Counted from the first letter of the stretch, positions 27,968 through 61,736 are shown. The stretch is DNA of 64,000 bases from a bacterium (GCA_043812655.1 JBDRLW010000008.1:3198-67197); one strand, 5' to 3'. Notes: generated by a model not told the origin, from the sequence alone. Made by a program: numbers and translations.

Positions 27968-28124
27968 ACCCTCACCCGCTAATGCTTAAGACTCCCCCCT
28001 CTCCCATAGGGAGAGGGTAACTCGCTTGTTTTATGTTTTATTTTTATACCCCCTCTACCTCCCTGCCTGCCGGCAGGCAGGTGGGAGAGGGGGTGCTATT
28101 GTTTGGCGTTGACGGGGGTGAGGG
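27968..28124. mobile_element. R1 composite element containing a nested R6 palindrome
   Basis: Runs accctcaccc...cccctctcccatagggagaggg...cctgcctgccggcaggcagg...gggggtgagggc, with TIR-like ends. Confidence 0.75.

Positions 28125-29537: not shown

Positions 29538-29545
<8 letters not shown>
28136..29545 (-). CDS. gltD: Glutamate synthase (NADPH) small subunit
   Basis: N-terminal Fe-S Cys motifs and GSGPAG FAD/NAD fold. Immediately downstream of gltB. Carries an in-frame R2 repeat insert. Confidence 0.85.
28450..28474. repeat. R2 repeat in frame in gltD
   Basis: ctggaccctggatcctggaccctgg encodes FQGPGSRVQ. Confidence 0.7.
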
Positions 29546-33947
<4,402 letters not shown>

Positions 33948-33983
33948 AGGTGTTGACCCGAAAAACCCTGCCCCATTACTAAA

Positions 33984-35318
33984 CTACAGTATCGGTAAAT
34001 ATTTTTTTATCTCATACTCCGTGACCTGGATCCTGAAATCATTCCATTCTTGCTTCTTAATTGCAATAAATCTTTCAAAGCAATGGTCACCCAAAGCTTC
34101 GCGCACCAACCCGCTTTTTTCGGTCACGGCGATCGCTTCACCCAAACTGGCTGGCAACGATTTCACGCCCCGCTCCGCCCGTTCTTCATCGTTCAAGTGA
34201 TAAAGGTTCAACTCCATCGGCTCCGGCAGTTTATACCCTTCCTCGATCCCTTTCAAGCCGGCTTGTAACATAACGGCGAACTGTAGATATGGATTTCCTG
34301 AAGGATCTGGGCAGCGAAGCTCCATCCTGGTCGCGACTTCTTTGCCTGGCTGATACATCGGTACACGGACCAAAGCTGAACGGTTTCGTCTTGACCAAGC
34401 GATATAAACCGGCGCTTCGAAGCCCGGGACTAAGCGTTTATAAGAATTAACCCAGGGAGCTAAAATGGAAATCATTTCCGGAGCGTGTTTTAAGATCCCG
34501 GCAATATATGATTTACCGACGGAAGACAAATGATATTTATCATTCGCGTCGTAGAACGCGTTAACCTTTCCTTTGAATAACGATTGGTGGCAGTGCATGC
34601 CGGAACCGTTTTGGCCAAAGATCGGCTTGGGCATGAAGGTCGCGTAGACCCCATTCTTAGAGGCGATCTCTTTAACCGTTAACCGGTAAGTCACGGTGTT
34701 ATCGGCCATCTTCAAAGCGTCGGCGTAGCGCATGTCGATCTCGTGTTGGCTGGGAGCAACTTCGTGATGGCTGTATTCAACCGTGATCCCAAGTTTCCTT
34801 AACGCGAAAACCGTATCTCGCCTAAGGTTTGAGGCCATATCGAGCGGCGTTAGATCAAAATAACCACCATTGTCGAGGACTTCTGTTCCTTTGGAATCTT
34901 TAAAGTAAAAGTATTCGAGTTCCGGCCCGATGTAGCAATGGTCAAAACCCATCTTTTTCATTTTATCCAGGGCTCTTTTTAAAACGTAGCGGGGATCGCC
35001 TTCATATGGTTTATGCTTACCGGCTGAAGGCTGTAAAATGTCGCAGATCATCCTGGCTACCGGTTTATCTTCCGGCCGCCACGGCAAGATAGCGAAAGTC
35101 TCAGGATCCGGCATCGCGATCATGTCCGACTCTTCGATCGCCTGGAAACCGGTGATCGAGGAACCGTCAAACCCCATTCCCTGGGTTAGCGCCCCTTCAA
35201 GTTCATCTGGGCCAACGGCAAAACTCTTGAGTATCCCGTTAAGATCAGTGAACCAGAACCTAATAAACTCGACCCCATTATCCTTAACCTGTTTTAAGAC
35301 ATCTTCCTTCGTAGTCAT
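33984..35318 (-). CDS. glnA: Glutamine synthetase type I
   Basis: 444 aa, GS catalytic motifs (NGSGMHCHQS). Sigma54 promoter upstream. Confidence 0.9.
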   Translation of the reverse strand: MTTKEDVLKQVKDNGVEFIRFWFTDLNGILKSFAVGPDELEGALTQGMGFDGSSITGFQAIEESDMIAMPDPETFAILPWRPEDKPVARMICDILQPSAGKHKPYEGDPRYVLKRALDKMKKMGFDHCYIGPELEYFYFKDSKGTEVLDNGGYFDLTPLDMASNLRRDTVFALRKLGITVEYSHHEVAPSQHEIDMRYADALKMADNTVTYRLTVKEIASKNGVYATFMPKPIFGQNGSGMHCHQSLFKGKVNAFYDANDKYHLSSVGKSYIAGILKHAPEMISILAPWVNSYKRLVPGFEAPVYIAWSRRNRSALVRVPMYQPGKEVATRMELRCPDPSGNPYLQFAVMLQAGLKGIEEGYKLPEPMELNLYHLNDEERAERGVKSLPASLGEAIAVTEKSGLVREALGDHCFERFIAIKKQEWNDFRIQVTEYEIKKYLPIL

Positions 35319-35373: not shown

Positions 35374-35466
35374 TCTTAAACCCGGTCATTTTACGACAAT
35401 TATGTAGAATATTTGGGGTGTTTTTACGTTTTTGTATGGATATATTTAGGGTTACGTTCGGAACCT

Positions 35467-35552
35467 GAGAATAAAATTCTCGGTTCCTCAAAAAATGGAA
35501 CCGCGACTTTCAGCCTTGCCTGCCGGCAGGCAGGTCGCAGGTTCATACCAAA
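35467..35552. repeat. R5 repeat with an R6 palindrome nested in its second hairpin loop
   Basis: cggaacctgagaataaaattctcggttcc...ggaaccgcga[ctttcagccttgcctgccggcaggcagg]tcgcaggttc. Confidence 0.7.
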
Positions 35553-35554
35553 TC

Positions 35555-37648
35555 TTACAATATTGTTAAAAGTTCCTGGTATTTTGCCATCGGCCAAAAT
35601 CCGTCCGCTACCAGAGTTTCAGCTTTATCAATGCTCTCGCGCAGATCGGCCAAAGCATTAGCCCCATTTTTGGCATACAATTTGGCTTTTTTCTCCAAGT
35701 TCTCTTCCTGTTCGCAAACAACGATCGCTTTCTCCAGCCCCTTGATCGCCTCTTTTACATCAGCATACAGGTACGAGGCTACTTTCAAATCGGCGGCCAT
35801 GGCGCTGTTTTTGGATGTCGCCTTAACGGCTTCGCCTAACGCCGCGATCTGGGCTAAAACCGCGGGCAGGACCAGCGTTTTGGCAATGTTCAAACCGGCT
35901 TTTAGTTCAACATCTTTGATCTTAATGTACGCATCCAGCTTGATCTCCACTTTTGAATGGAGCTCCCTCTTGGAAAGAACGCCATATTTTTCAAAAAGCT
36001 CAACACTCTCTTTCTCCAGCATTAAATCCAGAGAGTCTGGAGTGTTCTTGGCGTTAGGCAGTCCCCGTTTAGCCGCTTCCTTGTGCCACTCTTCAGAATA
36101 ATTGTTCCCTTCAAAACGCACCTTCTTGGTTTCTTTCAGGATATCCTTCATGACCAGGATCGCTTTTTCCTCAATGTTCTTCCCTTTTTTCGCTGACAGC
36201 CGGCTGGCTATTTCATCATAGCCGTAAGCCACGATCAGATTAAGGGTGGTCGCGGCTTCCGCGCAGTTCTGGGATGAACCGACAGCGCGGAATTCGAACT
36301 TATTGCCGGTAAAAGCGAGTGGCGATGTCCGATTTCTGTCAGATGTATCCTTGGCCACTTTAGGCAGGTTCTGGACATCTAAATTGATGTGGGAAAGGCT
36401 CTTTTCGCTCACTTCGTTGCCAACCCCTTCGATCTCATCCATCAATCTGGCTAAATATTCACCGAGATAAACGGACATGATAGCAGGAGGAGCTTCGTTC
36501 GCACCAAGCCGGTGGTCGTTCCCCGCATCAGCAACTGCCGCCCGCAGGAGGCCGCCGAATTTATTGACTCCAAGAAGGATCGCGCCTAAGGTGAGCAGGA
36601 AATTAATGTTTTTGATCGGCGAATCGGACGGTTCAAGATAATTCGTCCCGCTTTCATCTCCGAGTGACCAATTAAAGTGTTTACCAGAACCATTGACCCC
36701 AGCAAAAGGTTTTTCATATAGTACGGCAACCATCCCATGCTTTTCGGCCACCCGGCGGATGATCTCCATCAGCTGTAAGTTGTGGTCGATAGCCAGGTTG
36801 ACCTCCTCATAAAGCGGAGCGACCTCGAACTGGTTGGGAGAAACTTCATTATGCCTGGTCTTCGAAGGAATACCGTGCCGATAAAGCTCGGCATCAAAAT
36901 CTTCCATGAACATCATTACTTTGTCTTTGATCGAACCAAAATAATGGTCTTCGAGCTGTTGGCCTTTGGCCGGAGCCGCGCCAAAAAGCGTCCGGCCGGT
37001 AATGCGCAGGTCAGGCCGCGTATCAAAAAGTTCTTTGGAAACCAGGAAATATTCCTGCTCGGGCCCACCGTAAACCTTCATTTTTTTAACTGTGTTACCC
37101 AATAGTTTTTGCAGTTTTGTTGCCGATCCGGTCAAGGCCTTCATGGAACGAAGAAGAGGGGTTTTCATGTCCAGGACTTCGCCGGTCCAGGAAAGGTAAA
37201 CGGTCGGGATAACTAGGGTCTTAGTATCCCCTGCTTCCAGTAAAAATGCCGGGCTGGTCGGGTCCCACGCGGTATAACCTCTGGCTTCAAAGGTAGAGCG
37301 GATCCCGCCAGAAGGGAAGCTGGAGGCATCCGGTTCCGACTGGATCAGTTGTTTCGCGCTGAAACGCTCGACCATCTCCCCATCTTTGCCGTAGCTAAGG
37401 AAAGCATCATGCTTTTCAGCCGTACCGCCGCGTTGGGGTTGGAACCAGTGGGTAAAATGGGTGGCTCCATTCTCCATTGCCCATTCTTTCATCGCGTGGG
37501 CAACATCACGGGCGATCATTTCATCGAGGGGTTCGCCACCATCTAAAGTGGCAACTAATTTACTATAAACTTCTTTGCTTAATTTATCTTTCATCACCTT
37601 GCGGCTGAAAGTCAGTTCTCCGAATATTTGGCTAGCTGGTTTTGTCAT
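35555..37648 (-). CDS. glnN: Glutamine synthetase type III (GlnN)
   Basis: About 700 aa GSIII architecture. Start trimmed to MTKPASQIF, which has an AGGAGA SD. Confidence 0.8.
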   Translation of the reverse strand: MTKPASQIFGELTFSRKVMKDKLSKEVYSKLVATLDGGEPLDEMIARDVAHAMKEWAMENGATHFTHWFQPQRGGTAEKHDAFLSYGKDGEMVERFSAKQLIQSEPDASSFPSGGIRSTFEARGYTAWDPTSPAFLLEAGDTKTLVIPTVYLSWTGEVLDMKTPLLRSMKALTGSATKLQKLLGNTVKKMKVYGGPEQEYFLVSKELFDTRPDLRITGRTLFGAAPAKGQQLEDHYFGSIKDKVMMFMEDFDAELYRHGIPSKTRHNEVSPNQFEVAPLYEEVNLAIDHNLQLMEIIRRVAEKHGMVAVLYEKPFAGVNGSGKHFNWSLGDESGTNYLEPSDSPIKNINFLLTLGAILLGVNKFGGLLRAAVADAGNDHRLGANEAPPAIMSVYLGEYLARLMDEIEGVGNEVSEKSLSHINLDVQNLPKVAKDTSDRNRTSPLAFTGNKFEFRAVGSSQNCAEAATTLNLIVAYGYDEIASRLSAKKGKNIEEKAILVMKDILKETKKVRFEGNNYSEEWHKEAAKRGLPNAKNTPDSLDLMLEKESVELFEKYGVLSKRELHSKVEIKLDAYIKIKDVELKAGLNIAKTLVLPAVLAQIAALGEAVKATSKNSAMAADLKVASYLYADVKEAIKGLEKAIVVCEQEENLEKKAKLYAKNGANALADLRESIDKAETLVADGFWPMAKYQELLTIL

Positions 37649-37696
37649 GTGATATTTCTCCTTTTCACAGCATTTTAACATTATGCTTCAATAGAA

Positions 37697-37713: not shown

Positions 37714-37773
37714 TTGAAGCCCGCACAAACTCAAACAATTTTGTAATAAATGCCTGTGGATAATACAAAATTG

Positions 37774-40207
<2,434 letters not shown>

Positions 40208-43873: not shown

Positions 43874-44212
43874 TTAAAGCGCCTTTTCGCCCCGCTCCCC
43901 AGTCCTGACCCTGACAACATCCAAAACAGGGGAGATAAATATCTTGCCATCGCCAACTTTGCCGGTGGAACAGGTTTTCTGGATAACCTCTATGATCGTG
44001 TCAACCTTGGCATCGGCCACTACTAGTTCAACTTTTATTTTGGGGATAAATTCGACGCGATAATCACCAACCCGCCACTCAAGCGTGATCCCTTTTTGCG
44101 CCCCTCGCCCTTTAACTTCTGTCACCGTCATTGAGGAAAGATTTTGAGCATCAAGCGCTTCCCTTAGCTCTTCAAGCTTTTCACTTCTGATGATCACTTC
44201 AACTTTTTTCAT
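43874..44212 (-). CDS. glnK: P-II nitrogen regulatory protein (GlnK type, downstream of amt)
   Basis: 112 aa with a PII fold and T-loop (RGAQKG). Confidence 0.85.
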   Translation of the reverse strand: MKKVEVIIRSEKLEELREALDAQNLSSMTVTEVKGRGAQKGITLEWRVGDYRVEFIPKIKVELVVADAKVDTIIEVIQKTCSTGKVGDGKIFISPVLDVVRVRTGERGEKAL

Positions 44213-44249: not shown

Positions 44250-45470
44250 TTATGCCACCTCCGCGTGCTGGGAAATATCAAGCCCGACCAACTCTTCGTT
44301 CTCGGTCACTCTAAGACCGATCATTAAATCGACAAGCTTCGCTAAGATAAGGGCCGCCACAAAAGCAAAAAGCGCTGTAATGCTCGCGGCTTGGAATTGG
44401 ATCCACAATTGCCCTGGGTTGCCAAACAATAATCCGTCGGCTCCGGCGGGATTGACAGCTTTACTGGCAAAGATACCGGTCGCGATCGCGCCCCAAAATC
44501 CTCCAATCCCATGGCAGGCAAAGGCATCAAGCGACTCATCGATCCTAATTTTCATCCGTAGAATGATCATATAGTACGAGATGATCGCCGCGATCGCCCC
44601 GATCGCGATCGAAGAAAGCGGATCAACAAACCCTGCGGCAGGCGTAATGGCCACTAGTCCTACTACCGCTCCGGTCGCCACCCCCAAAACGCTTGGCCGA
44701 CGGTGGATCCAACTCAATACCATCCAGGTCAGGGCCGCCGCGGCCGCCGCTGTATTAGTGACTGCAACTGCCGAAGCAGCTAAACCGTTAGCCGCTAAAG
44801 ATGACCCGCCGTTAAAACCAAACCAGCCAAACCAAAGGAGAACAGCGCCAATGACAACCAGCGGAATATTAGAAGGCTCCATGTTGTCTTTGCCATAGCC
44901 GCGCCGTTTGCCGATGACCAACGCGATCGCCAGCGCGGTAAAACCAGCGGTGATATGGACAACCGTTCCCCCGGCAAAATCAAGCGCTCCCATCATCCGA
45001 AGCCAACCGCCAACACCCCAGATCCAATGGGCCACTGGATCATAAACTATTGTCGTCCAAAGAAGAGAGAATATAAGAAAAGCCGAAAATTTAGCCCTCT
45101 CCACGAACGCGCTGACAAAAAGCGTCGGCGTGACGATCGCGAAAGCCGCCTGGAAGATCATAAAGACCAAAGCCGGGATCGTCGCCGCATAATCAACATT
45201 CGGCGCTTGACCAACGCCTAGTAATCCTAACCACTGGCCCCCGCCGATCAAACCTTTAAGTGTGGGAGCAAAAGCTAAAGAATAGCCAATCAAAACCCAC
45301 TGGATACTAACTACAAACAGGAGCGCAAAACACATCATGATAGTGGAAAGAATATTTTTTTTCCTCACCATCCCGCCGTAAAAGAACCCGACCGCCGGCG
45401 TCATCAAGATCACTAGCGCCGCCGAAATTAAAACCCAAGCCGTATCTCCGCTGTTTATCATTTCTATCAT
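44250..45470 (-). CDS. amt: Ammonium transporter Amt
   Basis: 11-TM Amt/MEP family protein ([10 protein letters not shown]). Confidence 0.9.
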
Positions 45471-45476
45471 CCTCCT

Positions 45477-46205
45477 TTATAAATTAATATCCAACTGCGT
45501 GGTTAGCGTTGGTTTCGCCCCATTGTTATATTTGCCATAAGCACAGAGAACAGAGGTATTCGCTGAAAATGCGTATGAAAAACCGGCAAACAAGGCACCA
45601 AGTGACGAGTCGCCTCCAGCATAATCAACCGAAGCCCATATTTTATCGGTCAGCATTTTATCCCAAGTTAAAATAACACCCGCTCCGTCAGAGCCTAAAG
45701 TAGTTTTATTTCCCGCAAAGTAGCCAGCCGATATTCGGCCAAAGCTAAAGGTTTTTGCCCCAACACCATAAAGAATATTTTGGTCGGTCGCCCCTTTAAG
45801 CAAACCAAAGCCATACCCACCAACCGCTAAAGCCGGGAAAATATCGCTTTCAGCAATCCCATATTTAGCATTAAAAACCAAAGAACTTCCGGCCACTCCC
45901 TGGGGCAGAAAGGCATCAGCTCCAATTTCAACTCCCGAAATTACACCATAAGTTAAACCCAGGTCGGTCGGAAATTGCTGGCCGCCAGAACCCTTATCTT
46001 CAACTGAAAAATAATCATCAATCCCCAGATGCCATGTCCCCTTCGCCTGGATATCGGTCGACGGATTCCAGATCTGGGTCGACGGCGTCGCCAGCGCAGC
46101 CCCTCCCACTAACAAACTAACCAACAAACAAATGGCTCGACAAGCTCGCCATCCCAGCCATCCCGAGCTCCGTCGAGGGACTAACAGACTTTTCATGATT
46201 TTCAT
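45477..46205 (-). CDS. Putative outer-membrane porin co-transcribed with amt-glnK
   Basis: Signal peptide then alternating amphipathic beta-strands. Start trimmed to the ATG at 46205 (AAGGAGGG SD). An R4 repeat copy is translated within the signal-peptide region. Confidence 0.4.
   Translation of the reverse strand: MKIMKSLLVPRRSSGWLGWRACRAICLLVSLLVGGAALATPSTQIWNPSTDIQAKGTWHLGIDDYFSVEDKGSGGQQFPTDLGLTYGVISGVEIGADAFLPQGVAGSSLVFNAKYGIAESDIFPALAVGGYGFGLLKGATDQNILYGVGAKTFSFGRISAGYFAGNKTTLGSDGAGVILTWDKMLTDKIWASVDYAGGDSSLGALFAGFSYAFSANTSVLCAYGKYNNGAKPTLTTQLDINL
46108..46185. repeat. R4 repeat (short form) in the porin gene signal-peptide region, translated from the opposite strand
   Basis: ctaacaaactaaccaacaaacaaATGGCTCGACAAGCTCGCCATCCCAGCCATCCCGAGCTCCGTCGAGGGActaaca. 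Same plus-strand orientation as the 17.8-kb copy, but the host gene is on the minus strand. Confidence 0.75.
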
Positions 46206-46230
46206 TGTTTCCCTCCTTGCCCAATAAAAG

Positions 46231-46247
46231 AGCAAACTTTCTGCCAG
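46231..46247 (-). promoter_or_regulatory. Sigma54 (-24/-12) promoter for porin-amt-glnK
   Basis: Minus-strand cTGGCAGaaagtTTGCTc is near-perfect consensus. It overlaps the ORF-track start of the porin, which argues for the downstream ATG. Confidence 0.65.
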
Positions 46248-46313
46248 GAGAGAAATAGGGGGTTAAACTATAATGAGAAACAATTTTGTAGCGATATTAG
46301 ATGGAGTTATACG

Positions 46314-50368: not shown

Positions 50369-51889
50369 TTAGTTTACTTTAATTTTATATTTTCCGATCT
50401 TATAACCCAACATCCTTTCGGTGATCCCCAGCGCTTTAGCCGCTTTACGCTGGCTTTTATATTTCCCAAGCGCTTTTTCGATCCGCTGTTTTTCGATCGC
50501 TTCAACGATCTGCGGGAGCGTCGCCCCTTCCGGCTGGATGTCTTCTTCTTTTTTGATCGAAATAGTGGCCGGCAAATATCGCGGCGTGATCACATCTTCA
50601 TCGCAGATCACGACCGCTCGCTCAATGATATTTTCCAGTTCCCGGACATTCCCGGGAAAATCGTATTTCACCAAAATATCTAGGGCCGCGCGGTTGAGCC
50701 CTTTTATTTTTTTCTTATTCTCCTTATTATATTTATGGACGAAATGGTCGGAGAGCAAGGGAACATCTTCGCTCCGTTCACGTAAAGGCGGTAGTATGAC
50801 GGGAAAAACATTGATCCGGTAATAAAGATCTTCCCGGAATTTGCCTTGTTTTACCATTTCGGTCAAGTTGCGGTGGGTCGCGCAAATTACCCGGACATTG
50901 ATCTTGATCGTTTCGTTGCCACCGAGACGCTCAAATTCTTTTTCCTGCAAGATCCGCAACAGTTTGACCTGGGTCGCTAAGGTCAAGTCGCCAATCTCAT
51001 CAAGGAAAAGCGTCCCTTCATTAGCCAATTCAAACCGCCCCTTCCGCCGCTCGGTCGCGCCGGTAAATGCCCCTTTTTCATAGCCAAAAAGTTCCGCTTC
51101 GAGCAAATTCTCCGGCAGCGCGGCGCAAGCGACTTTAATGAATGGTTTATCGGTCCGGCCGCTCGAGTAATGGATCGCCGACGCGACTAATTCTTTCCCG
51201 GTCCCCGATTCGCCAAGGAGCAGGACCGTCGCCTGGCTGTCAGCCACTTGCATCGCTGAAACCAACATCGTTTCCATGATCCGCGAACTGTACACTATAT
51301 TTCCAAACTGATATTTCCCTTTTAATTCCCGACGGAGTTTGATATTCTCCGAAACGACCGCCTGCTTATCAAGCAGCGCTAATTCCCTTACCCGCACCGC
51401 CTGCCCCACCATCGCCGCAATGATCGTTAAAAGCTTAATGTCTTCTTCGTAAGAAATATTCCCTTTAAAAAGATGGTCAACTGAAAGGGCGCCAATAGTT
51501 TTATTTCCCGCTTTGATCGGCACACAAAGGAAGGCAAATTTTCTCTCCTGCAAATTCCGCCGCGCCTGGGTCCGGTTCAAAAAAAGTGGGTCAGCTTCAA
51601 TATTTGGAATAACCATCGGTTCACCCGTCGCTACCACCCGGCCGGTGATCCCTTCGCCGATCTTATAGCGGCCCCGCTCTTTTTCTTCTTTTGTTAGCCC
51701 GTGCGCAACTTCGATCCGCAGTTCGTTAGTTCCAGGCGTGGTTAAAGTGATCGTCCCCCGCTCCATTTCCAGCGAATCGGCCAAAACCTTTAGGATCGAA
51801 TCAAGTGTTTCGGGCAGGTCAAGCGAAGTCGACAGCGCGGTACTAATATCAACTAAAACCTTAACTTTAATATCTCTGGTCGGACTCAT
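50369..51889 (-). CDS. GAF-domain sigma54-dependent transcriptional activator (NifA/NtrC family) with C-terminal Fis-type HTH
   Basis: N-terminal GAF domain, Walker A GESGTGKE, GAFTGA sigma54-contact motif, C-terminal HTH. Confidence 0.85.
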   Translation of the reverse strand: MSPTRDIKVKVLVDISTALSTSLDLPETLDSILKVLADSLEMERGTITLTTPGTNELRIEVAHGLTKEEKERGRYKIGEGITGRVVATGEPMVIPNIEADPLFLNRTQARRNLQERKFAFLCVPIKAGNKTIGALSVDHLFKGNISYEEDIKLLTIIAAMVGQAVRVRELALLDKQAVVSENIKLRRELKGKYQFGNIVYSSRIMETMLVSAMQVADSQATVLLLGESGTGKELVASAIHYSSGRTDKPFIKVACAALPENLLEAELFGYEKGAFTGATERRKGRFELANEGTLFLDEIGDLTLATQVKLLRILQEKEFERLGGNETIKINVRVICATHRNLTEMVKQGKFREDLYYRINVFPVILPPLRERSEDVPLLSDHFVHKYNKENKKKIKGLNRAALDILVKYDFPGNVRELENIIERAVVICDEDVITPRYLPATISIKKEEDIQPEGATLPQIVEAIEKQRIEKALGKYKSQRKAAKALGITERMLGYKIGKYKIKVN

Positions 51890-51912
51890 ACAATATTGTA
51901 TCCTTATACATT

Positions 51913-51941
51913 ATTGTAGCAAACAACACGCCGGGTAGCAA
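51913..51941 (-). promoter_or_regulatory. Sigma70-type promoter (TTGCTA-17-TACAAT) of the sigma54-activator operon; copy A of a duplicated promoter
   Basis: Minus strand reads TTGCTAcccggcgtgttgtttgcTACAAT. Its 17-bp spacer is nearly identical to the copy at 56082-56110. Confidence 0.5.
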
Positions 51942-51970
51942 TGTTTTGAAGGCTAGATTCTATTTTTTAA

Positions 51971-52417
51971 TTAAAGCCCATTATCCTTCCTAATCCTCTG
52001 GATATATTTGCGTTCAACAAGTTTGCTAGCCAACACTTTTTGGATAATATTTTTCAGCCGATCGGCCGATAAATTACCCAGGACATGAAGTTGATGAAGG
52101 TTATAATTATTTTGCAATTCTATAATATCTAATTCGAAAACACGATTTGGCTGGATATAGGTCTCCCTTTCAAACGCTCCTTCCTGGCCGGCCGCGATAC
52201 AAACATCATCGCCGCGATAATGGCGGTTATGGTCGTCAATCGGCGTTGTGGTTGCTATTGTTGCCAGAACTGTTCGCAAATCAGCCGCCGTCAAAATTAT
52301 CAAACGCTTAAAGTGGCTTTCGCCGTCTGGAAAATAAACCAGGGTTCGAATGACGCAACCAGGAGCCAGCCACTCCAGCAATGCCTTGTCAGTAACTTTT
52401 TTAGGCAGGTCAAGCAT
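51971..52417 (-). CDS. Hypothetical protein; candidate toxin partner of the Panacea-domain protein
   Basis: 148 aa, overlaps the upstream Panacea gene by 8 bp. No recognisable family from sequence. Confidence 0.3.
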   Translation of the reverse strand: MLDLPKKVTDKALLEWLAPGCVIRTLVYFPDGESHFKRLIILTAADLRTVLATIATTTPIDDHNRHYRGDDVCIAAGQEGAFERETYIQPNRVFELDIIELQNNYNLHQLHVLGNLSADRLKNIIQKVLASKLVERKYIQRIRKDNGL

Positions 52418-52967
52418 TTTTGGAGAAAAGGTGGGTCAGGGCTTTATTGTTGTCGCTGTCTTCTTTCAATATTTCAACCAAAGCCTTTTTCCTCTCTGCC
52501 GGTAATTCATCAATCATGTCATACGCTGATATTTCTCCATGTTCGCTGGCGTTTTGCCAGGAGTTTTCTTTGTGGCTGATATCAACCAAGCGGCTGGATG
52601 TATAACGGCCATACTCGTTAATGACTCTTTGGATAATTATTGTTTCTGATTCGGACAGCTCTTTTAAATCCGGCTTATTTTTGCATTTAATCGTCCGGTT
52701 TTTATCGCTGCCAATAATAAGATACCGCCGCAAATACGCCTCTTCTTCTTTAAACAGGTTGCCTCTTTCGTTAATAATATCCAAAACCTGGGAAGGGATC
52801 GGGCCAAGCGGCAATTTAAAATAGATATCGCCAGTAACAAATCTGCCATATTCGATTAAATGCAGTTTATCGATGTAATACAATAATTTACAGGCCTTTA
52901 ATTTATCAATTGGCCCAAGCTCATCAGCCAAACAGCCTAAAACCGCTACCACTTTTCTTATGTTCAT
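52410..52967 (-). CDS. Panacea-domain (DUF4065, SocA-like) protein; probable antitoxin
   Basis: KLLYYIDKLHLIEYGRFVTGDIYFKLPLGPIP matches the Panacea core (KLqKLLY...GPV). Confidence 0.55.
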   Translation of the reverse strand: MNIRKVVAVLGCLADELGPIDKLKACKLLYYIDKLHLIEYGRFVTGDIYFKLPLGPIPSQVLDIINERGNLFKEEEAYLRRYLIIGSDKNRTIKCKNKPDLKELSESETIIIQRVINEYGRYTSSRLVDISHKENSWQNASEHGEISAYDMIDELPAERKKALVEILKEDSDNNKALTHLFSKNA

Positions 52968-52979
52968 TGCCGCTCCCTC

Positions 52980-55900
52980 CTATTTTTTATTGTCATTATA
53001 GACCTTCATCCCTTCCTTCACCACCCCAACATTATCAATCTCCCCCATAATCCTATCCGTTTCAGTCAACGCCACAATAATCTTCTGATAATGCTCAATA
53101 TCGCTATTGGTTAATGTCCTTCCCTTGCGGTCTTTGAGCCATTTTTGCGCCGGCTGGTAGCCGCCAATATAGAAATGCCAGGCAACTTCCGGCACTTTGC
53201 CAAAATATTGGTCTTTATTAATAAAGACTTTGCCGTCTTTATAAGCTATCTTCTCAGTTGCATTGGTTCCAGCGACTGGATACGTCGTTATAAAGTTATT
53301 TACTTTGGGCGATTCAAGGAGGTGCAATGAGCGCAATTCTGTTCCAAGTTCGGCCAGAGCTTTAAATGTTTTAGCATCGTTAGGATACGGCACACGAGGA
53401 AAATCACTCTTCAAAAACTCTTTAAACTTTGTTCGATAAGCTGGCGAGTGTAAAACTGCGTAAATATAGTCAAGAATGTTTTCTGGGGAAACAGCACCTA
53501 TACTTTTTTCTATTTCATCAAGAACTTCCTTTTTAAAGTTTGGAGATTTACTTCCATCTTCTTTAAAAATATAAAGTGGAAAAACCTGTTCGCCTCCACG
53601 ATAAAAGCAATTAAGATCAACAATGCTATCTATAACAAAAGCAACATTCCATTCCATCGAACCGACAGCTTGTCCTTGACGCCCTACAGCAAGGCCTAAA
53701 TTATGCCCTTTTAGAAAATTAGTCATCAATTTAATTCTTGGCCGCCAAATCAATTTGCTATCAAAATATGTATATTGCCGGTCAAATGGCCGGTAGATAA
53801 TTGGAACAAGCTTGTCTTGTTCAAAAATAATATCCTTTTTGTTCCCTGCTATCCATTTAGAATAATTTTTCCCAAGGTCATATTGCTCATTCATTGTGCT
53901 TTCGGAAATATTTTCGGATAGATAGTTTTCAATTCGTCTACTTAATATATCCCTATCCATATTAATAATAAAACCATCACCTAAAGTAAACACACCGGTT
54001 GTGCTTTCCACAAAAAAATCATTCAAATTAAACCCTTGTTGATATTCCACTTCAAGCTTTCCCGACCCTTCCGAGGCAAAAACAAGATTTGGCTGGCGCG
54101 ATTCCAATTGTACCCATTCAGCTTTTCCCACTGAAAGATCATTAAGAAGTTTAAATTTATTTTCGCGATCACCCCAAATATCAAGTCGATATATTTTTGC
54201 GAGATCGCCTTTCTTTTTCTTCCCAGTTTTTACCGCCAACATAATTGCCACTCCCTGTTGTATGGCAAAGACATTTTCATCTTTACTCCCGTCTGGCGCA
54301 ACTTCTTTTTTCTTAGCGTTCCCGTGAAGATCAATAACATAAATAGAATCAAATGTATCCATAAGATGCCAGCGCATCCCACGAAAGGTCGGGTTATCCA
54401 AGTATCCATGATTGGTAATAAAACCAACAACACCCTCCCCGTTCTTCGCGATCATATCTTCAGCAAAGGCAATAAACTTTACATAATCATCATTAAGCCA
54501 ATGTTTCCGCTCTTGGAGTTTTTGCTTGCCTCCAGGCTCAACTTTATACTTAGCAACCAGGCTATTGGCATAATCTGTTTCATTTGAAGAAACACCAGAA
54601 TACGGCGGATTGCCGATCACTACCATGATCGGCATCTCGTTTTTGATCTTGCTTGCTTCCTTAGCTTCTTCGGCAATACTTTCGGCCAATCCAAAAGAAA
54701 ACATGGTTTGCTGGGCTTCGCCAGCTTCCAAAGAATTGGTCAGATAGATTCCCAACCGCCGATGAAATTTCCAAAAGCCGGTCTTCTTAAAAGCCAGGCT
54801 TAATTTCAAATGCGCGATCGTGTACGGAGTCATCATCAGTTCAAACCCGTGCAGTCGAGGTAAAAGGTCATTGTGGACATAAGCCGGCCAGCGCCCATCC
54901 TGCCCCTGCTTTTTAAGCCTGCCATAAATAAGATTGATCGCCGCGCTGATAAAGGTCCCTGTTCCCACCGCCGGATCAAGGATTTGCACCCGGTGCTTGT
55001 TGTTTGGCAGTTTTGAAGTGTCGGCTAAGCCGCCAGCTAAGCCAAACTCATTTTTCAGGATATGATCAACCGATCGGACGATAAAATTAACCACCGGCAA
55101 AGGAGTATAATATGCCCCCATCCTCTTGCGCAGTTCAGGATCGTATTCCCTTAGAAAATCCTCATAAAAATGGATAACAGGATCAGCATCCCTTAAATAA
55201 TCCTCAAGCAACTGTTTTATATTGGAATGCAGGAAAACAACACAAAGTTCATCAACAATATAGCTCAATCGCTTGTCAAAACTTGGTCCGGCAATGTGGT
55301 CAAAAAAATGCCGCAAAAATGGGTTTGAGGCTGGCACCAGGTCGCGCGCCTCCTGGCGGGAAAAAGTATCAGACGTTTCATCATAATAGCGGGCCACAAA
55401 CAGGCCATAGACTAGCGTTTGGGCGTACATGTCGGCAAATGATTCAAACGTCAGGTCATGGACCAGCATTTTCTTGATCGCTTCATACACCCTAACCAGC
55501 TCGCCATTTTTTTCCGACTCGAGCGTCAAATAATGCAGGATATTATCCCTGATCCTCTGCGCCTTGCCACCCATTATTTTAGCCAGGTGTTCGCCTGATT
55601 TTATCGGCTCTTTATGCGACTGGGCAAAATCCAGCAGTGTTTTCGCTGCGTGTTCGTAATTTTCCGGCAGTAGCGTGATCACGCGATCCTTTAGATCATA
55701 GGTCGCTATTTTTATGGATTCATTATAACGCTTGCCATTTCGATAAAAACGAAATTCCAAGTAATCGGTCAAAACCAGGTTAGCATAACCAAAATATCTG
55801 GCCATTTGCTCCGATTTTTCCACTTTATCCAAAGAGACGCCAATATCTTTTGTTTCTATATAAAGAATCGGCACTTCATTATATAAAATAAAATCCGGCC

Positions 55901-56069
55901 GGTTTCCCTCATTAGCCTTTGGGTCATTATCAATCCTTTTAACCTTAATAGATTCAAAAATCCCCTTCAGTAATATTTCAAAATCAGCGCGGTATCCCAT
56001 TTCGCTGGTTTCTTCATGCGAAAACTTTTCCGAGACTGATTTAAGGTATTTAGCTACTATTTCTTTCAT
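52980..56069 (-). CDS. MmeI-family Type IIL restriction-modification enzyme (single-chain PD-ExK nuclease + gamma-class N6-adenine MTase + TRD)
   Basis: N-terminal RPDFILYNEVPILYIETKD (D...ExK arranged as in MmeI), MTase motif I DPAVGTGTF, motif IV NPPY. 1029 aa. ATGA overlap with the upstream gene. Confidence 0.7.
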   Translation of the reverse strand: MKEIVAKYLKSVSEKFSHEETSEMGYRADFEILLKGIFESIKVKRIDNDPKANEGNRPDFILYNEVPILYIETKDIGVSLDKVEKSEQMARYFGYANLVLTDYLEFRFYRNGKRYNESIKIATYDLKDRVITLLPENYEHAAKTLLDFAQSHKEPIKSGEHLAKIMGGKAQRIRDNILHYLTLESEKNGELVRVYEAIKKMLVHDLTFESFADMYAQTLVYGLFVARYYDETSDTFSRQEARDLVPASNPFLRHFFDHIAGPSFDKRLSYIVDELCVVFLHSNIKQLLEDYLRDADPVIHFYEDFLREYDPELRKRMGAYYTPLPVVNFIVRSVDHILKNEFGLAGGLADTSKLPNNKHRVQILDPAVGTGTFISAAINLIYGRLKKQGQDGRWPAYVHNDLLPRLHGFELMMTPYTIAHLKLSLAFKKTGFWKFHRRLGIYLTNSLEAGEAQQTMFSFGLAESIAEEAKEASKIKNEMPIMVVIGNPPYSGVSSNETDYANSLVAKYKVEPGGKQKLQERKHWLNDDYVKFIAFAEDMIAKNGEGVVGFITNHGYLDNPTFRGMRWHLMDTFDSIYVIDLHGNAKKKEVAPDGSKDENVFAIQQGVAIMLAVKTGKKKKGDLAKIYRLDIWGDRENKFKLLNDLSVGKAEWVQLESRQPNLVFASEGSGKLEVEYQQGFNLNDFFVESTTGVFTLGDGFIINMDRDILSRRIENYLSENISESTMNEQYDLGKNYSKWIAGNKKDIIFEQDKLVPIIYRPFDRQYTYFDSKLIWRPRIKLMTNFLKGHNLGLAVGRQGQAVGSMEWNVAFVIDSIVDLNCFYRGGEQVFPLYIFKEDGSKSPNFKKEVLDEIEKSIGAVSPENILDYIYAVLHSPAYRTKFKEFLKSDFPRVPYPNDAKTFKALAELGTELRSLHLLESPKVNNFITTYPVAGTNATEKIAYKDGKVFINKDQYFGKVPEVAWHFYIGGYQPAQKWLKDRKGRTLTNSDIEHYQKIIVALTETDRIMGEIDNVGVVKEGMKVYNDNKK

Positions 56070-58570
56070 TTATCATTTAGACTATAGCAAACAACGCGCT
56101 GGGTGGCAATGTCGGAAAGCAGGATCAGCGGTTGTTTAGAAAAATCAAAGATCCGGACGACTCGGCGCAAGGCTTTGTCATCATGAAGTTCTTCTTTAGC
56201 CAAAGAAGGGTTCAGTTTAAAACCGTTAAACAGGGCCAGATAGAATATTTGGGCTTCGACCAGGTCAAGAAAAAAGTGCGAGCCAAAAGAGAGTTCCGGC
56301 ATAAAACCACTTTCGGGCTCCGCCACTTCAACCAGAGCGGCAAAATTATTGATCTCGGCAAAACTGACCGGGACACCCAGTGTCGCGTCCTTTGTCCCCC
56401 AGCGGCCGGGACCAATCAGCATTGTCGGATGTTTTTTTCTGTCTTTAATTTCCCTGTTAAGCCGGCCGATCAATCTAGCTACGGTAAATTTTTTATTATA
56501 CAAAAGCTTGGCATATTCCCTAGTATCGATATAAATAACCTTGTTAATTGGCTGGGAGACATTCCCCCCCATAAAATTACCTGTCGTTTCAATCAATGAG
56601 TTTTCCGGCTTGATCTTCCCCGGCATTTTTACCGGGAGGTTTGGCCCCTTCGCCTGGAGCGGTCGGCATTGCAGAACATTGACCTGCAGTTTTCCTGCTC
56701 GATTATAATTAGCGGTAAACTCAACATCGACCGGATATTCATAGACCGCTTCCAGCCGCGCCAGCATCTGCTGAAGGCTAACGGCGAATTCTGTTTTGGA
56801 CAAAAGCTGGTCAAAAGTCAAAAACAGGAAATCTTGCTTACTTCTCTGCGCGATCAATTCCAAGTTAATGGCTGGCTCTTCGGTTAAAAGTTGTGACAGC
56901 GGCAATGAAATTAATTCGTTTTTTTCTATATCGAGCAGGTCAACTTCGTGCTGGGAAAACTTAAGTTTGTCTTCCACCCCGGCATACGGCTGTAAAAGCG
57001 GTTTATCAAGCGCTACAACTCGGGGATAGTCCCCTTCAACCCGGTTGACCGCCCTGGTCCCCAAACCAAAAACCAGACGAAGCATCCCCGCTTTTGGGTC
57101 CATTTCTTGATTCCAAACAAAAGTATTGTAAGAAACCCCTACCCCGGCTAAAAATGGAAAAAAATATTTTTGATACTGCGTCCCAGAAACGCGCTGGACC
57201 AAAAGAGCCATCTGCTCGTCTTGCAGGCCCAAACCCCTCTGCTGCCGATAGGTTAGCGCATCTTCATTCATCGTGCTGGCAAAGACTTCCCTGACCGTCC
57301 GTTCATAATTGACGTAGCGCTCATCCAGGCTACCCTGATTAACGCAAAAAATACTCTCATACTTCCCGGCAAAGGCGTTGCCAAACCCGTCTTCCAATAA
57401 ACTGGAAGAACGGATAATGATCGGCGACTGGCCATAATATTCCAGGAGTTGGTTGAATTGTTCCCTGATCTCATCAGGAAAATTTCCCGTTAGAAGTTTT
57501 TCTTTTAAGTCGGCCGCTTTGGCAAAAAAGCCCTCGGTTGTTTTTTGCTCCAGCCAGAGGTCCCACCAGCCATTTTGGACAATGTAAGAATAAAAAACAT
57601 CGGAACCGATATAAAAAGAATCATGCGCTTCCAGTTTTTCTTCCCAATTGGCCAGGATCTTACGCGCCAGGAGCATCCCCACCGCTTTTCCCCCGATATA
57701 GCCGGTGCCGATCATCCGGTTTTTGATCGCGATCAAATCTTCCAAGGCAAAATATTTTTTGACCAAAGAGAGCATCCGCTCTTCCCGTCCGACCATGATC
57801 CGTAATAACTGGTCAACCATTTTATTTTTTTCTTCCTCGGCCGCTTCAGTCTTGGTCAGCTCCTCCGCCTTAATAAATAGCCTGTCCCAATAATCAAGGT
57901 TCCGCTCGGCCGTTTCCGCCCCCTTGGCCGACATATAAGCTAAAAGCCGGGCTGCGTCGACACTGCTGGTCAGCGGCAAATATTTTTCCCCTTCCGCGAT
58001 ATGGGGCAAGAACATCGTCGGCGAATAGCGGTTCCAGACTTTTAAGGGATGAAGATAATACTTCCCTTCAAAGCTATAAACATCAAGTAAAAGCTGGGTC
58101 GTTTCCCTGATCCGGGCAATGGTTTTATAAGAATGATTATTCCGTAAAATGGCAAAATAAGCCAAAGTATTTAATTTAAAAAGATAGGGGCAAGTGACCA
58201 TGAAAAAGTTCCCGATCATGAGGTCTGTCGCCCAGGCAAAAAGCAGATCGGATAAACAATCAAAAAGATAAAAAGCCCCATCCCCTTCCAGTGTGATGAT
58301 CTCGTGAACCTCTTTGGAAAAGGATTCAAACCCGACCGTCGCGTCAAGATCATAAGTCTTTACGTCTTTTATTAGCGGCGGATGGCTGGCAAAGCGGATA
58401 TAAATGATCTTGCGCCCGTCTTTTTTAGCTTGTTCAATATAAGGCCTTACAAAATAGAGATAATCCTCAATACGGTCAACCTGCCAAACAACATTATCCC
58501 CCTTCCTTAAACCCTGAAGGATGTTGTCAAGCCCATTCACTCCGGAACTGACAAAATTTATCGTCTTCAT
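56066..58570 (-). CDS. Large protein with a degenerate KaiC/RecA-like N-terminal domain and a PEP-utilising-enzyme ATP-grasp (PPDK_N-type) nucleotide-binding domain; no phospho-His swivel domain
   Basis: IIRSSSLLEDGFGNAFAGKYES matches the PpsA/PPDK N-domain (VAVRSSATAEDLPxASFAGQ). GGKAVGMLLARKIL and a C-terminal VDVEFT...LQCRP fit the ATP-grasp. The N-terminal SSGVNGLDNILQGL resembles a KaiC/RadA fold but has no P-loop. Confidence 0.5.
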   Translation of the reverse strand: MKTINFVSSGVNGLDNILQGLRKGDNVVWQVDRIEDYLYFVRPYIEQAKKDGRKIIYIRFASHPPLIKDVKTYDLDATVGFESFSKEVHEIITLEGDGAFYLFDCLSDLLFAWATDLMIGNFFMVTCPYLFKLNTLAYFAILRNNHSYKTIARIRETTQLLLDVYSFEGKYYLHPLKVWNRYSPTMFLPHIAEGEKYLPLTSSVDAARLLAYMSAKGAETAERNLDYWDRLFIKAEELTKTEAAEEEKNKMVDQLLRIMVGREERMLSLVKKYFALEDLIAIKNRMIGTGYIGGKAVGMLLARKILANWEEKLEAHDSFYIGSDVFYSYIVQNGWWDLWLEQKTTEGFFAKAADLKEKLLTGNFPDEIREQFNQLLEYYGQSPIIIRSSSLLEDGFGNAFAGKYESIFCVNQGSLDERYVNYERTVREVFASTMNEDALTYRQQRGLGLQDEQMALLVQRVSGTQYQKYFFPFLAGVGVSYNTFVWNQEMDPKAGMLRLVFGLGTRAVNRVEGDYPRVVALDKPLLQPYAGVEDKLKFSQHEVDLLDIEKNELISLPLSQLLTEEPAINLELIAQRSKQDFLFLTFDQLLSKTEFAVSLQQMLARLEAVYEYPVDVEFTANYNRAGKLQVNVLQCRPLQAKGPNLPVKMPGKIKPENSLIETTGNFMGGNVSQPINKVIYIDTREYAKLLYNKKFTVARLIGRLNREIKDRKKHPTMLIGPGRWGTKDATLGVPVSFAEINNFAALVEVAEPESGFMPELSFGSHFFLDLVEAQIFYLALFNGFKLNPSLAKEELHDDKALRRVVRIFDFSKQPLILLSDIATQRVVCYSLNDK
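56082..56110 (-). promoter_or_regulatory. Internal sigma70-type promoter (TTGCCA-17-TATAGT) for the Type IIL gene; copy B of the duplicated promoter
   Basis: Minus strand reads TTGCCAcccagcgcgttgtttgcTATAGT. It lies inside the 3' end of the 837-aa gene, 13 nt upstream of the RM enzyme ATG. Confidence 0.5.
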
Positions 58571-59547
58571 AAATCCCAAAAACTGATTAATTTATCATAA
58601 TCAATGATCGAAACCAAGGCTTTGCTTTCTGTCACTATGCCAGATTCTTCGGCGGCGGCGACCGGATTAAGCCCTCCTGGAATTACTATCCCCACCCGTT
58701 CGAGGCCAACCGGTACGCCAAGGATCGTTTGGCCGGCTTTGCCGATCATAATCGCTTTGCCTAAGCCGGCCGATTCTGCCCGGCGCAAGATCGCCTCGGC
58801 TTCATCGCGCGAAGCCGCCGGGATCTCCCTTAAGCTGGCCAATATTTTCCCCTTGCCAAGGCAGGCGGCACTGACGCTGGTCATCCGGCTCTTTAAAAAT
58901 ATTTCGTGCGGATCAAGCGTTGAACCGGTGTAATTGATAATATCGGTAAAACGGAGCGGCCGTTCATCTTCGATCTGCAGGATCCCGCCAAATCTTGATT
59001 CGATCGGAATGGAATGCTTGGTCAATATCCCATTTAGGTTGATACTGCAGAGCGTGCCAAAGGCCACTTGCCCGGGCGGAACAATTATCCCGCCAATTTT
59101 TTCGCCTTCAGGTACGACCACCACGAGTTCACCGGTCGCAAAGCCGCTTTTGAAAACTTGAGCCATAACTCCCAAGGCCTTTTTAAAGTCTTTTTTCTGG
59201 AAAAAAGAGAGATTTAAGATCACTCCGCCCGATTTATTTTCAAGGTCAAAATCCATTTTATACGCCATCGTCTCAATACGTGAGCTCATAAAGCCAACTT
59301 TATCAAAAACCAGCGCGTCCCCTAACTCTTCCAGCCCTTTACTGGTGATCATCCGCCCCTCCTTCCAAATTACTTTGGTTAAACCACGCTCGTTCATCAC
59401 TTTTAAATGATAGCGGACCGCCCTCTCCGAAAGTTCAATCCCATGATCTTTCAATTTTTTGGCTATGTCAGCCGAACCGATCGGCTCGCTCTTCTGTGAA
59501 ATTATCCGCAAGATCGCGTTGATCTTCCTGTCTAAGTCCGTCGTCAT
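58567..59547 (-). CDS. NrpR-like regulator (N-terminal winged HTH + DUF128 nitrogen-regulatory domain)
   Basis: IISQKSEPIGSADIAKKL...RAVRYHLKVMNERGL wHTH followed by one roughly 230-aa domain. Divergent from gdhA. Start trimmed to the ATG at 59547. Confidence 0.45.
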   Translation of the reverse strand: MTTDLDRKINAILRIISQKSEPIGSADIAKKLKDHGIELSERAVRYHLKVMNERGLTKVIWKEGRMITSKGLEELGDALVFDKVGFMSSRIETMAYKMDFDLENKSGGVILNLSFFQKKDFKKALGVMAQVFKSGFATGELVVVVPEGEKIGGIIVPPGQVAFGTLCSINLNGILTKHSIPIESRFGGILQIEDERPLRFTDIINYTGSTLDPHEIFLKSRMTSVSAACLGKGKILASLREIPAASRDEAEAILRRAESAGLGKAIMIGKAGQTILGVPVGLERVGIVIPGGLNPVAAAEESGIVTESKALVSIIDYDKLISFWDL

Positions 59548-59569
59548 AACGAGAATATTATAACATGGA

Positions 59570-59599
59570 TTGACATACGGCAATAGGTTGCCGTATAAT
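59570..59599 (+). promoter_or_regulatory. Consensus sigma70 promoter of gdhA with a perfect 9-bp inverted-repeat operator in the spacer
   Basis: TTGACA-18 nt-TATAAT. The spacer and -10 contain ATACGGCAAtaggTTGCCGTAT (59575-59596). AAGGAGG SD precedes the gdhA ATG. Confidence 0.6.
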
Positions 59600-59643
59600 A
59601 ATGGCCAGCAAAAGAAAGGAGGAGAAGTTTGTTGGTTCGATAG

Positions 59644-61008
<1,365 letters not shown>

Positions 61009-61097: not shown

Positions 61098-61736
61098 TTA
61101 GAAGAACGCCATCCTGGCTCCAGCGGCTAGGATAAAGCCATCGAGCGGCAATGAATTACCGCTGCTATCCTTAATGCTGGTCCGCAAATAATTGATCTGG
61201 GCAAAAGCTCCGGTATCTGGGCCAAGGCCAAATTCGATCCCTGTCCCGATCTGGGCGCCAAATCCGGCAAAACTTGAAGGGGAATTAAGTTTAACTTCGC
61301 TGGATTTATTGGCTGTATAGTAGTTGGCTTCGGCATCCAAATAAAGATTGGCGATACCATGGGCGCTGGAATCCCCCCAACTAAGAACATACATTCTAGC
61401 TCCATAGCCAAACCTTAAAATTGAATAAGTCGCGTTAAGCGTGGTCCCCTGGTCATTATTAAATGACGATAGGCCAAATCTAGGTCCAGTATCTAAGTTC
61501 TGGTTTAATCTAGCGTCGAACTCAAGCCCAAGATCATACGCTGTAGTTTTTGTCGCCAAAACATCCCTGTTGGGAGAGATCATACTTAACCTTACCCCCA
61601 ATCTATAGGACTTTTTCTGAGACATCGCCAATAGATCTTTCGTTGAAACCGTGCTTGTCCCTTCGATCGCGTAAGCCGGAACTATCGCCGCTAAACTTAA
61701 AACAAAAACCGCCAACAAAGTAAGGACCTTTTTCAT
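61098..61736 (-). CDS. Small outer-membrane beta-barrel protein (OmpW/OmpA-like), tandem paralog 1
   Basis: Signal peptide and C-terminal ...ARMAFF aromatic terminus. About 50% identical to the neighbouring paralog. Confidence 0.5.
   Translation of the reverse strand: MKKVLTLLAVFVLSLAAIVPAYAIEGTSTVSTKDLLAMSQKKSYRLGVRLSMISPNRDVLATKTTAYDLGLEFDARLNQNLDTGPRFGLSSFNNDQGTTLNATYSILRFGYGARMYVLSWGDSSAHGIANLYLDAEANYYTANKSSEVKLNSPSSFAGFGAQIGTGIEFGLGPDTGAFAQINYLRTSIKDSSGNSLPLDGFILAAGARMAFF

Follow-up and report, generated by a model that had tools for sequence, protein, structure and literature searches.

Does a bacterial homologue of NrpR, the textbook nitrogen repressor of methanogens, control the glutamate dehydrogenase (GDH) gene that it faces, and through which site? 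The question is raised by a 64,000-nt stretch of bacterial DNA (GCA_043812655.1, JBDRLW010000008.1:3198-67197; hereafter the window), in which nrpR and gdhA diverge from an intergenic region carrying a consensus promoter and a perfect palindrome. Judged from its sequence, the source organism is a metagenome-assembled genome (MAG) of the Margulisiibacteriota/Saganbacteria. The closest named relatives of the NrpR protein come from this group (candidate division WOR-1), and Margulisbacteria are a non-photosynthetic sister group of the cyanobacteria. We propose that NrpR probably binds the palindrome and so occludes the gdhA promoter, and probably its own, with 2-oxoglutarate as the presumed effector.

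The nrpR-gdhA locus and its predicted operator

Positions are counted from the first nucleotide of the window.

59680-61008, plus strand: gdhA, NADP-specific glutamate dehydrogenase, the predicted target (NCBIfam PRK09414, 770.6 bits, cut-off 536; Pfam ELFV_dehydrog)
59570-59599, plus strand: sigma-70-type promoter of gdhA, with -35 TTGACA (59570-59575), 18-nt spacer and -10 TATAAT (59594-59599), 12/12 consensus
59575-59596, no strand: predicted NrpR operator ATACGGCAA-tagg-TTGCCGTAT, core GGCA-N6-TGCC, by direct reading
59557-59565, minus strand: likely nrpR promoter, extended -10 TGTTATAAT, 9 nt before the ATG, by direct reading
58567-59547, minus strand: nrpR, 326 amino acids (aa), ATG at 59547, TGA at 58567 (58569-58567)
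About 59323-59517, minus strand: winged helix HTH_12 (PF08461) of NrpR, residues 11-75, Pfam E 8.6e-21
About 58588-59298, minus strand: single regulatory domain NRD1_2/PF01995 (formerly DUF128) of NrpR, residues 84-320, Pfam E 2.4e-81
56066-58570, minus strand: KaiC-like (without Walker A) plus PPDK_N ATP-grasp protein, 834 aa, PPDK_N E 1.1e-48

The nrpR product is a bacterial member of the NrpR family, its profile matches giving one winged helix and one NrpR domain. An earlier note, made from the sequence alone, had taken it for an NrpR-like protein with a winged helix-turn-helix and DUF128, and the profile search for DUF128 that it suggested found the full domain, with the PF01995 match spanning 236/238 model positions. 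The sole sequence relative in the PDB was the NrpR domain of Methanocaldococcus MJ0159 (3NEK; phmmer E 2.8e-29). Window NrpR was 100% identical to a MAG protein listed at NCBI as 'NrpR regulatory domain-containing protein', several close homologues carry the JGI annotation 'global nitrogen regulator NrpRI', and NCBIfam returned no model for the regulator. Among 25 homologues the helix motif ER-x-V-RYHLK was invariant, as was the Cys in TLCSINLNG (C167), which aligns with a Cys of MJ0159 and presumably matters for the 2-oxoglutarate response. A longer nrpR open reading frame (ORF) with a TTG start at 59583 gained no support from the homologues.

The divergence of nrpR from gdhA and the TTGACA-18-TATAAT promoter with its perfect 9+9 inverted repeat were both as the earlier note had described them. 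The gdhA promoter was the only 12/12 promoter match in the stretch scanned, and the repeat spans the final -35 base, the entire spacer and the first three -10 bases. Consensus promoters are intrinsically strong and are typically under repression. Given the combination of a strong 12/12 promoter with a site on the spacer and the hexamer edges, we read NrpR as a repressor of gdhA.

The conservation of this arrangement was assessed in a scan of nrpR loci with one genome per species, which yielded 80 loci, 13 from Margulisiibacteriota and 67 from others (Dehalococcoidia, other Chloroflexota, Nitrospirales, Syntrophaceae and further groups). As the loci were gathered with two peptide patterns, one being the NrpR recognition helix, the sample is biased. 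In all 13 related loci gdhA lay divergently upstream of nrpR, and each related intergenic region held exactly one copy of ATTATACGGYAA-N4-TTRCCGTAWGTCAA, with the 4-nt centre free. When 14 orthologous gdhA-nrpR regions were aligned, all 22 invariant columns fell inside the 30-nt promoter/operator block. Both promoter hexamers were conserved and, within the spacer, ACGGYAA and TTRCCGT were invariant in 14/14 loci; the central four bases and both flanks varied. One relative (L011) carried symmetric half-site substitutions, giving GGTAA...TTACC. Conserved arms, a free centre and diverged flanks constitute the classical signature of a dimeric repressor operator.

A weight matrix derived from these sites returned one site per locus at >=8 bits in about 170 kb (window and relatives). 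At this threshold, neither the window nor the 13 relatives showed a second operator upstream of glnA, glnN, amtB, gltB, the ATP-grasp gene or the nifA-like gene. The earlier note had proposed looking for the motif upstream of other nitrogen genes; within the window there was none besides the gdhA site.

On the nrpR side, the TGnTATAAT element recurs near the nrpR start in four relatives (L003, L005, L006 and L014). The arrangement suggests that the nrpR mRNA is leaderless or near-leaderless. From the transcription start inferred here, the operator would lie at about -26 to -47, making negative autoregulation of nrpR likely; we predict it as such. nrpR appears to be without a Shine-Dalgarno sequence (59545-59565, minus strand).

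NrpR-type sites in other bacteria

The NrpR operator of Methanococcus maripaludis is GGAAN6TTCC (PMC2723118). The window core GGCA-N6-TGCC (GGYA-N6-TRCC in relatives) has the archaeal spacing and agrees at 3/4 bases per half-site, so that the predicted operator fits the geometry of the family. When 5+5 palindromes were counted without bias in the 260 nt preceding each of the 66 non-Margulisiibacteriota nrpR genes with enough upstream sequence, the exact archaeal form, GGAAA-N4-TTTCC, ranked first (16 loci), with GGTAA-N4-TTACC and GGCAA-N4-TTGCC lower in the same ranking. The combined pattern GG[ACT]AA-N4-TT[TGA]CC occurred <=300 nt upstream of nrpR in 41/67 non-Margulisiibacteriota loci, mostly at -40 to -60. 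Its density was 2.05/kb upstream of nrpR versus 0.035/kb in the other 776 kb (about 59-fold). The earlier note's view of the palindrome as a repressor operator, here a predicted one, is therefore backed by the phylogenetic footprint, by the archaeal operator geometry and by enrichment upstream of bacterial nrpR genes.

Sites away from nrpR were not randomly placed; they preceded the ferredoxin gene that heads split glutamate-synthase (GOGAT) operons (L013, L027, L058), the glutamate synthase FMN subunit gene (L023, L024, L065, L066), a gdhA-like gene (L052), the gene of a KaiC-HTH-cupin regulator (L049) and a second nrpR (L059). The predicted targets GDH and GOGAT all aminate 2-oxoglutarate, which fits a logic of induction by substrate.

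We further scanned metagenomes with TACGGYAANNNNTTRCCGTA, which returned at least 120 loci. Among the matches listed, 13 adjoin gdhA and/or nrpR and 17 lie 16-36 nt upstream of the ferredoxin gene of a split GOGAT (for one locus, an ORF start overlapping the site was ignored). The operon at L150, for example, continues past the ferredoxin gene with genes for amidotransferase, oxidoreductase, GATase_2 and Glu_synthase. In single cases the site precedes amtB-glnK (L103) or an ATP-grasp gene (L163), or lies between a KaiC-HTH regulator gene and glnA (L140). Some of the matches listed are terminator hairpins with an A-run and a T-run.

Two further observations came from these collections. An extended operator, ATATGGTATACGGCAAGCGGTTGCCGTATACCATAT, stands 16-36 nt before the 4Fe-4S ferredoxin gene of split archaeal-type glutamate-synthase operons on metagenome contigs (L088-L090, L128, L137, L150, L160, L164, L191 and others). 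A regulator of about 420 aa, comprising a KaiC-like domain (without Walker A), HTH_3 and a cupin domain (L086, 6529-7791; L140; L049), recurs in the neighbourhood of nitrogen genes and NrpR-type palindromes. In its KaiC-like domain it shares about 25% identity with the N-terminus of the ATP-grasp protein encoded next to nrpR in the window.

Proposed regulation of gdhA and alternative explanations

Family membership, the anatomy and conservation of the site and its enrichment are shown by the sequences; binding, repression and the effector with its sign we infer as follows. An NrpR dimer would bind ATACGGCAA-N4-TTGCCGTAT, covering the spacer and touching both hexamers, and thereby keep RNA polymerase off gdhA. 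The same operator would also limit nrpR and the KaiC-like/ATP-grasp gene and, by read-through, a restriction gene inserted behind them. 2-Oxoglutarate is the known inducer of archaeal NrpR, which leaves its operator upon binding it (PMC11957540), and by analogy it would release window NrpR as well. GDH, a consumer of 2-oxoglutarate, would then be made as 2-oxoglutarate accumulates. In this lineage NrpR would be a local regulator, with a NifA-like activator handling the glutamine synthetases and AmtB.

Several observations weigh against this proposal. The effector and the sign of regulation come from analogy only. One base per half-site departs from the archaeal consensus (GGCA/GGTA versus GGAA), and the promoter hexamers themselves account for part of the conservation of the 30-nt block. 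Relatives differ in how far the operator lies from the nrpR start, which makes autoregulation less secure than control of gdhA. glnA, glnN, amtB and gltB of the window are without a predicted NrpR site, so the regulon would be unlike the archaeal one, and the site scan of the organism's own genome covers the 64-kb window only. In the metagenome scan, 109 of the 120 matches listed have no adjoining gdhA or nrpR homologue, and 31 of the 120 lie inside long ORFs, which indicates that the bare pattern also arises by chance in very large collections.

NrpR might bind the site with an inverted or mixed logic, in which a ligand (2-oxoglutarate or, for example, glutamine) promotes binding and gdhA is off in nitrogen limitation as in enterobacteria, or in which bound NrpR activates the nrpR operon while repressing gdhA. 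The inferred nrpR start is about 36 nt downstream of the operator centre, a distance from which some regulators activate. Many bacteria lower GDH at nitrogen scarcity, and the separate sigma-54 system for the glutamine synthetases and AmtB would take over under limitation. We nevertheless regard such a logic as unlikely, given that the regulatory domain has kept close similarity to its archaeal counterpart, that the predicted bacterial targets are the 2-oxoglutarate-consuming GDH and GOGAT, as induction by substrate would have it, and that several anaerobes raise NADPH-dependent GDH when ammonia is limiting. It is distinctly improbable that another regulator binds the palindrome, or that it is kept merely as promoter architecture, with NrpR next door by chance. 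The arms do extend into the -35 and -10 hexamers, whose conservation has reasons of its own. Spacers normally vary, yet here both spacer arms are invariant around a variable centre; moreover, the site class tracks nrpR in unrelated phyla and matches the archaeal operator geometry, and the neighbouring NifA-like activator is tied to a different motif.

It is barely conceivable that the palindrome represents a generic repeat of the genome, a terminator hairpin or a sigma-54 promoter. The window is rich in perfect 9+9 inverted repeats (36 nested matches versus 4.2 in simulated sequence), and GGCAAT...TTGC resembles the -24/-12 elements upstream of glnA. However, nearly all 36 matches fall in two hairpin-repeat families unrelated to the gdhA palindrome, which is itself unique in the window at <=3 mismatches (0 expected); the earlier note had named a generic repeat among the findings that would overturn its view. 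The site lies between divergent genes and has no T-run, a terminator scan of 58400-59800 found none, and Rfam gave no match in the whole window (gathering thresholds) or in 59480-59760 (E <= 1), so that the 5' region of gdhA shows no known riboswitch or leader. As a sigma-54 promoter the palindrome was rejected, its GG (59579-80) and GC (59590-91) being separated by 9 nt where exactly 10 are required (TGGCAC-N5-TTGC).

Repression of gdhA by NrpR, the reading we prefer, has close precedents. NrpR of M. maripaludis likewise joins a winged helix to the NrpR domain family and uses a 4-N6-4 palindromic operator over a nitrogen-assimilation promoter (PMC2723118). It differs in acting at an archaeal TATA/B recognition element (BRE) promoter on nif, glnA, glnK-amtB and molybdate transport, whereas window NrpR would act at a bacterial sigma-70 promoter on a single predicted local target, gdhA. 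The window half-site has C/T in place of A and extra conserved TAC flanks. M. maripaludis NrpR has two NrpR domains and the window protein one, an architecture of one helix and one domain that we take to be that of Methanosarcina mazei/acetivorans NrpRI. NrpRI works with the helix-less NrpRII to contact archaeal transcription factors; unlike in Methanosarcina, the window holds no NrpRII-like gene, and such a partner would be without a counterpart in bacterial transcription. TetR/tetA and Corynebacterium AmtR likewise pair a divergent dimeric repressor with an operator over -35/-10, release by a small molecule or signal and likely autoregulation, but their protein fold and ligand domain are unrelated to those of NrpR, making them functional analogues only.

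Bacterial NrpR homologues have been mentioned merely as occurring in 'certain Bacteria' (PMC2723118). The literature searched treats the function of NrpR in methanogens only, and in it we met with no bacterial NrpR whose operator or regulon is described, most subscription papers and the regulon databases lying outside this search. RegPrecise reportedly may list NrpR regulons for some Deltaproteobacteria. That a bacterial NrpR should control a nitrogen gene via a palindrome would hardly surprise a specialist; the comparative data, in turn, outline a regulon that has gone undescribed. We put forward tentatively, as a possibility somewhat short of even, that NrpR and the operator code GGNAA-N4-TTNCC form one pair working in both domains of life, at TBP/TFB and at sigma-70 promoters. 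Its bacterial regulon (Margulisiibacteriota, Dehalococcoidia, Syntrophales and others) would be centred on GDH and the split archaeal-type GOGAT, and would also take in the KaiC-like/ATP-grasp family and the KaiC-HTH-cupin regulator, which share a degenerate KaiC-like domain. If true, such a pair would suggest that anaerobes have a nitrogen-signalling module that has so far gone unrecognised. The site class is common to archaea and the present locus, and it recurs upstream of glutamate-forming enzymes in several uncultured phyla; the predicted regulon in bacteria seems to centre on GDH and GOGAT rather than on nif and glnA. The present locus is a clean, testable case of a 22-bp predicted operator in a consensus promoter with one obvious target, gdhA. 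It also aids the annotation of nitrogen control in Margulisbacteria and flags a conserved KaiC-like/ATP-grasp enzyme that travels with nitrogen genes.

Operon partner, inserted island and neighbouring nitrogen genes

The gene following nrpR encodes the 834-aa KaiC-like/ATP-grasp protein, and its ATG (58570-58568) overlaps the nrpR stop TGA, confirming the ATGA overlap (58567-58570) reported in the earlier note. In the AlphaFold model (mean predicted local distance difference test score 83.6), Foldseek matched residues ~290-645 to the ATP-grasp domain of rifampin phosphotransferase/phosphoenolpyruvate (PEP) synthase (5HV3 and 2OLS) and the N-terminal ~230 residues to KaiC/RecA-type ATPases. The latter domain was found by fold search only: Pfam at E <= 1 returned nothing in the N-terminal 288 or C-terminal 202 residues, and a PDB sequence search found no relative. 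The predicted folds of both domains are thus shared with known enzymes, but in contrast to KaiC-like ATPases the KaiC-like part is without a Walker A motif on direct reading, and in contrast to PEP synthase-type enzymes the protein gave no Pfam match to a PEP-utilizers swivel domain bearing a catalytic histidine.

The ATP-grasp gene follows nrpR in 9/13 related loci, at distances from a 4-nt overlap (window and L001) to a spacing of about 35 nt. Homologues 57-70% identical occur in Syntrophales, Sedimentisphaerales and many further contigs, and the family numbers >8000 database proteins. Those examined always lay among nitrogen-assimilation genes, sometimes preceded by an NrpR-type palindrome: beside a NifA-like activator, GOGAT, glnN, gdhA and nrpR (L081); beside a NifA-like activator, amtB, PII, glnA and gltB (L084); or between the KaiC-HTH-cupin regulator and gdhA, with nrpR nearby and the palindrome in front (L086). 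By its neighbourhoods the protein is a conserved uncharacterised enzyme of nitrogen loci and not a defence gene.

Behind it lies a repeat-flanked block of other genes.

51917-56112, minus strand: inserted island with two 28-nt direct repeats (51917-51944 and 56085-56112; 89% identical, 4168 bp apart)
52980-56069, minus strand: type IIG restriction-modification gene, 1029 aa (PADLOC REase_MTase_IIG, E 5e-292)
52410-52967, minus strand: SocA/Panacea antitoxin (SocA_Panacea, E 4e-22)
51971-52417, minus strand: 148-aa antitoxin partner, without a family match

Following the distal repeat are codons for ..IATRRVVCYNNV and a stop (relic 51906-51944), which match the C-termini of the relatives' ATP-grasp proteins (..SQRVVCLK and stop), and the relic is immediately followed by the promoter region of the NifA-like gene, as in relatives. 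The G+C content of the island falls to 0.36-0.41. The island is absent from 13/13 related loci, where nrpR and the ATP-grasp gene are directly followed by the NifA-like gene. On this comparison, the island has entered the ATP-grasp gene at its 3' end and split off the original terminus. It carries no integrase.

The earlier note had seen the regulator as wired to a defence-like operon of restriction-modification and ATP-grasp genes, and this part of it did not hold. Such purposeful wiring, with both genes following nitrogen status, would draw on the ATGA overlaps that join nrpR to the ATP-grasp gene and the latter's new stop to the ATG of the restriction gene (56066-56069). This ATG stands only ~15 nt from the repeat, a gap so short that the restriction gene is probably transcribed from upstream, by read-through from the nrpR operon. 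We consider the wiring very unlikely all the same: the ATP-grasp protein, a conserved product of nitrogen neighbourhoods, gave no PADLOC defence-model match at E <= 0.01, and the real defence genes sit in a repeat-flanked, low-G+C restriction/toxin-antitoxin block that none of the 13 relatives has. The coupling of the restriction gene to the nrpR operon arose incidentally when the island inserted and does not reflect a conserved arrangement.

Profile matches identify the window as a nitrogen super-cluster, which includes nadE and an NfnAB-like pair in addition to the following.

28136-35318: gltD-gltB-glnA
35555-37681: type III glutamine synthetase (glnN)
43874-44212: PII
44250-45470: amtB
50369-51889, minus strand: GAF/sigma-54 NifA-like activator (TIGR01817 nifA, 517.6 bits), a separate regulator with its own promoter and motif
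35372-35357, 37712-37697 and 46246-46231, minus strand: sigma-54-type -24/-12 elements, GG-N10-GC, upstream of glnA, glnN and orf252-amtB-PII

The motif CTACAANNTTGT (palindromic TACAA-N3-TTGTA) had nine matches in the window versus 2.6 expected, eight of them in upstream regions of nitrogen genes. Copies precede the sigma-54-like promoters of glnA, glnN and orf252-amtB, and tandem copies stand where the NifA-like gene starts (51888-51919, 46280-46291, 37735-37774, 35396-35407 and 35555-35566); the GAF/sigma-54 activator probably uses the motif as its enhancer site. The simplest model on these site distributions would have the NifA-like activator run the glutamine synthetases and AmtB, and NrpR run gdhA. 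The NifA-like gene begins 5 nt after TACAAT, and tandem CTACAANNTTGT-type copies at its start recur in five relatives (L003, L007, L008, L010 and L014).

The two hairpin-repeat families of the window look like repetitive extragenic palindrome (REP)-like or terminator elements. The first, CCCCTCTCC-loop-GGAGAGGGG, has about ten intergenic copies, and the second is CCTGCCTGCCGGCAGGCAGG; repeats lie at 7542, 18572, 18623, 24183, 27695, 27997, 48021, 48494, 48542 and 63700, and also at 28062 and 35520-35535. L009, L010 and L011 have kin of these repeats in intergenic DNA or in the gdhA leader. The gdhA leader itself (window 59600-59679, and its equivalents in L001 and L008-L012) belongs to no Rfam family and ranges from about 30 to 135 nt across relatives. 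Long leaders carry a second GGAGG(TG) Shine-Dalgarno-like element shortly past the promoter, plus GT-rich or GC-hairpin stretches.

Two ORFs without a family match hold conserved positions. A 212-aa ORF (61098-61736) lies downstream of gdhA. A 252-aa ORF (45477-46235) heads the amtB-PII unit behind its sigma-54-like promoter, and L084 has an unannotated 234-aa gene at the equivalent position.

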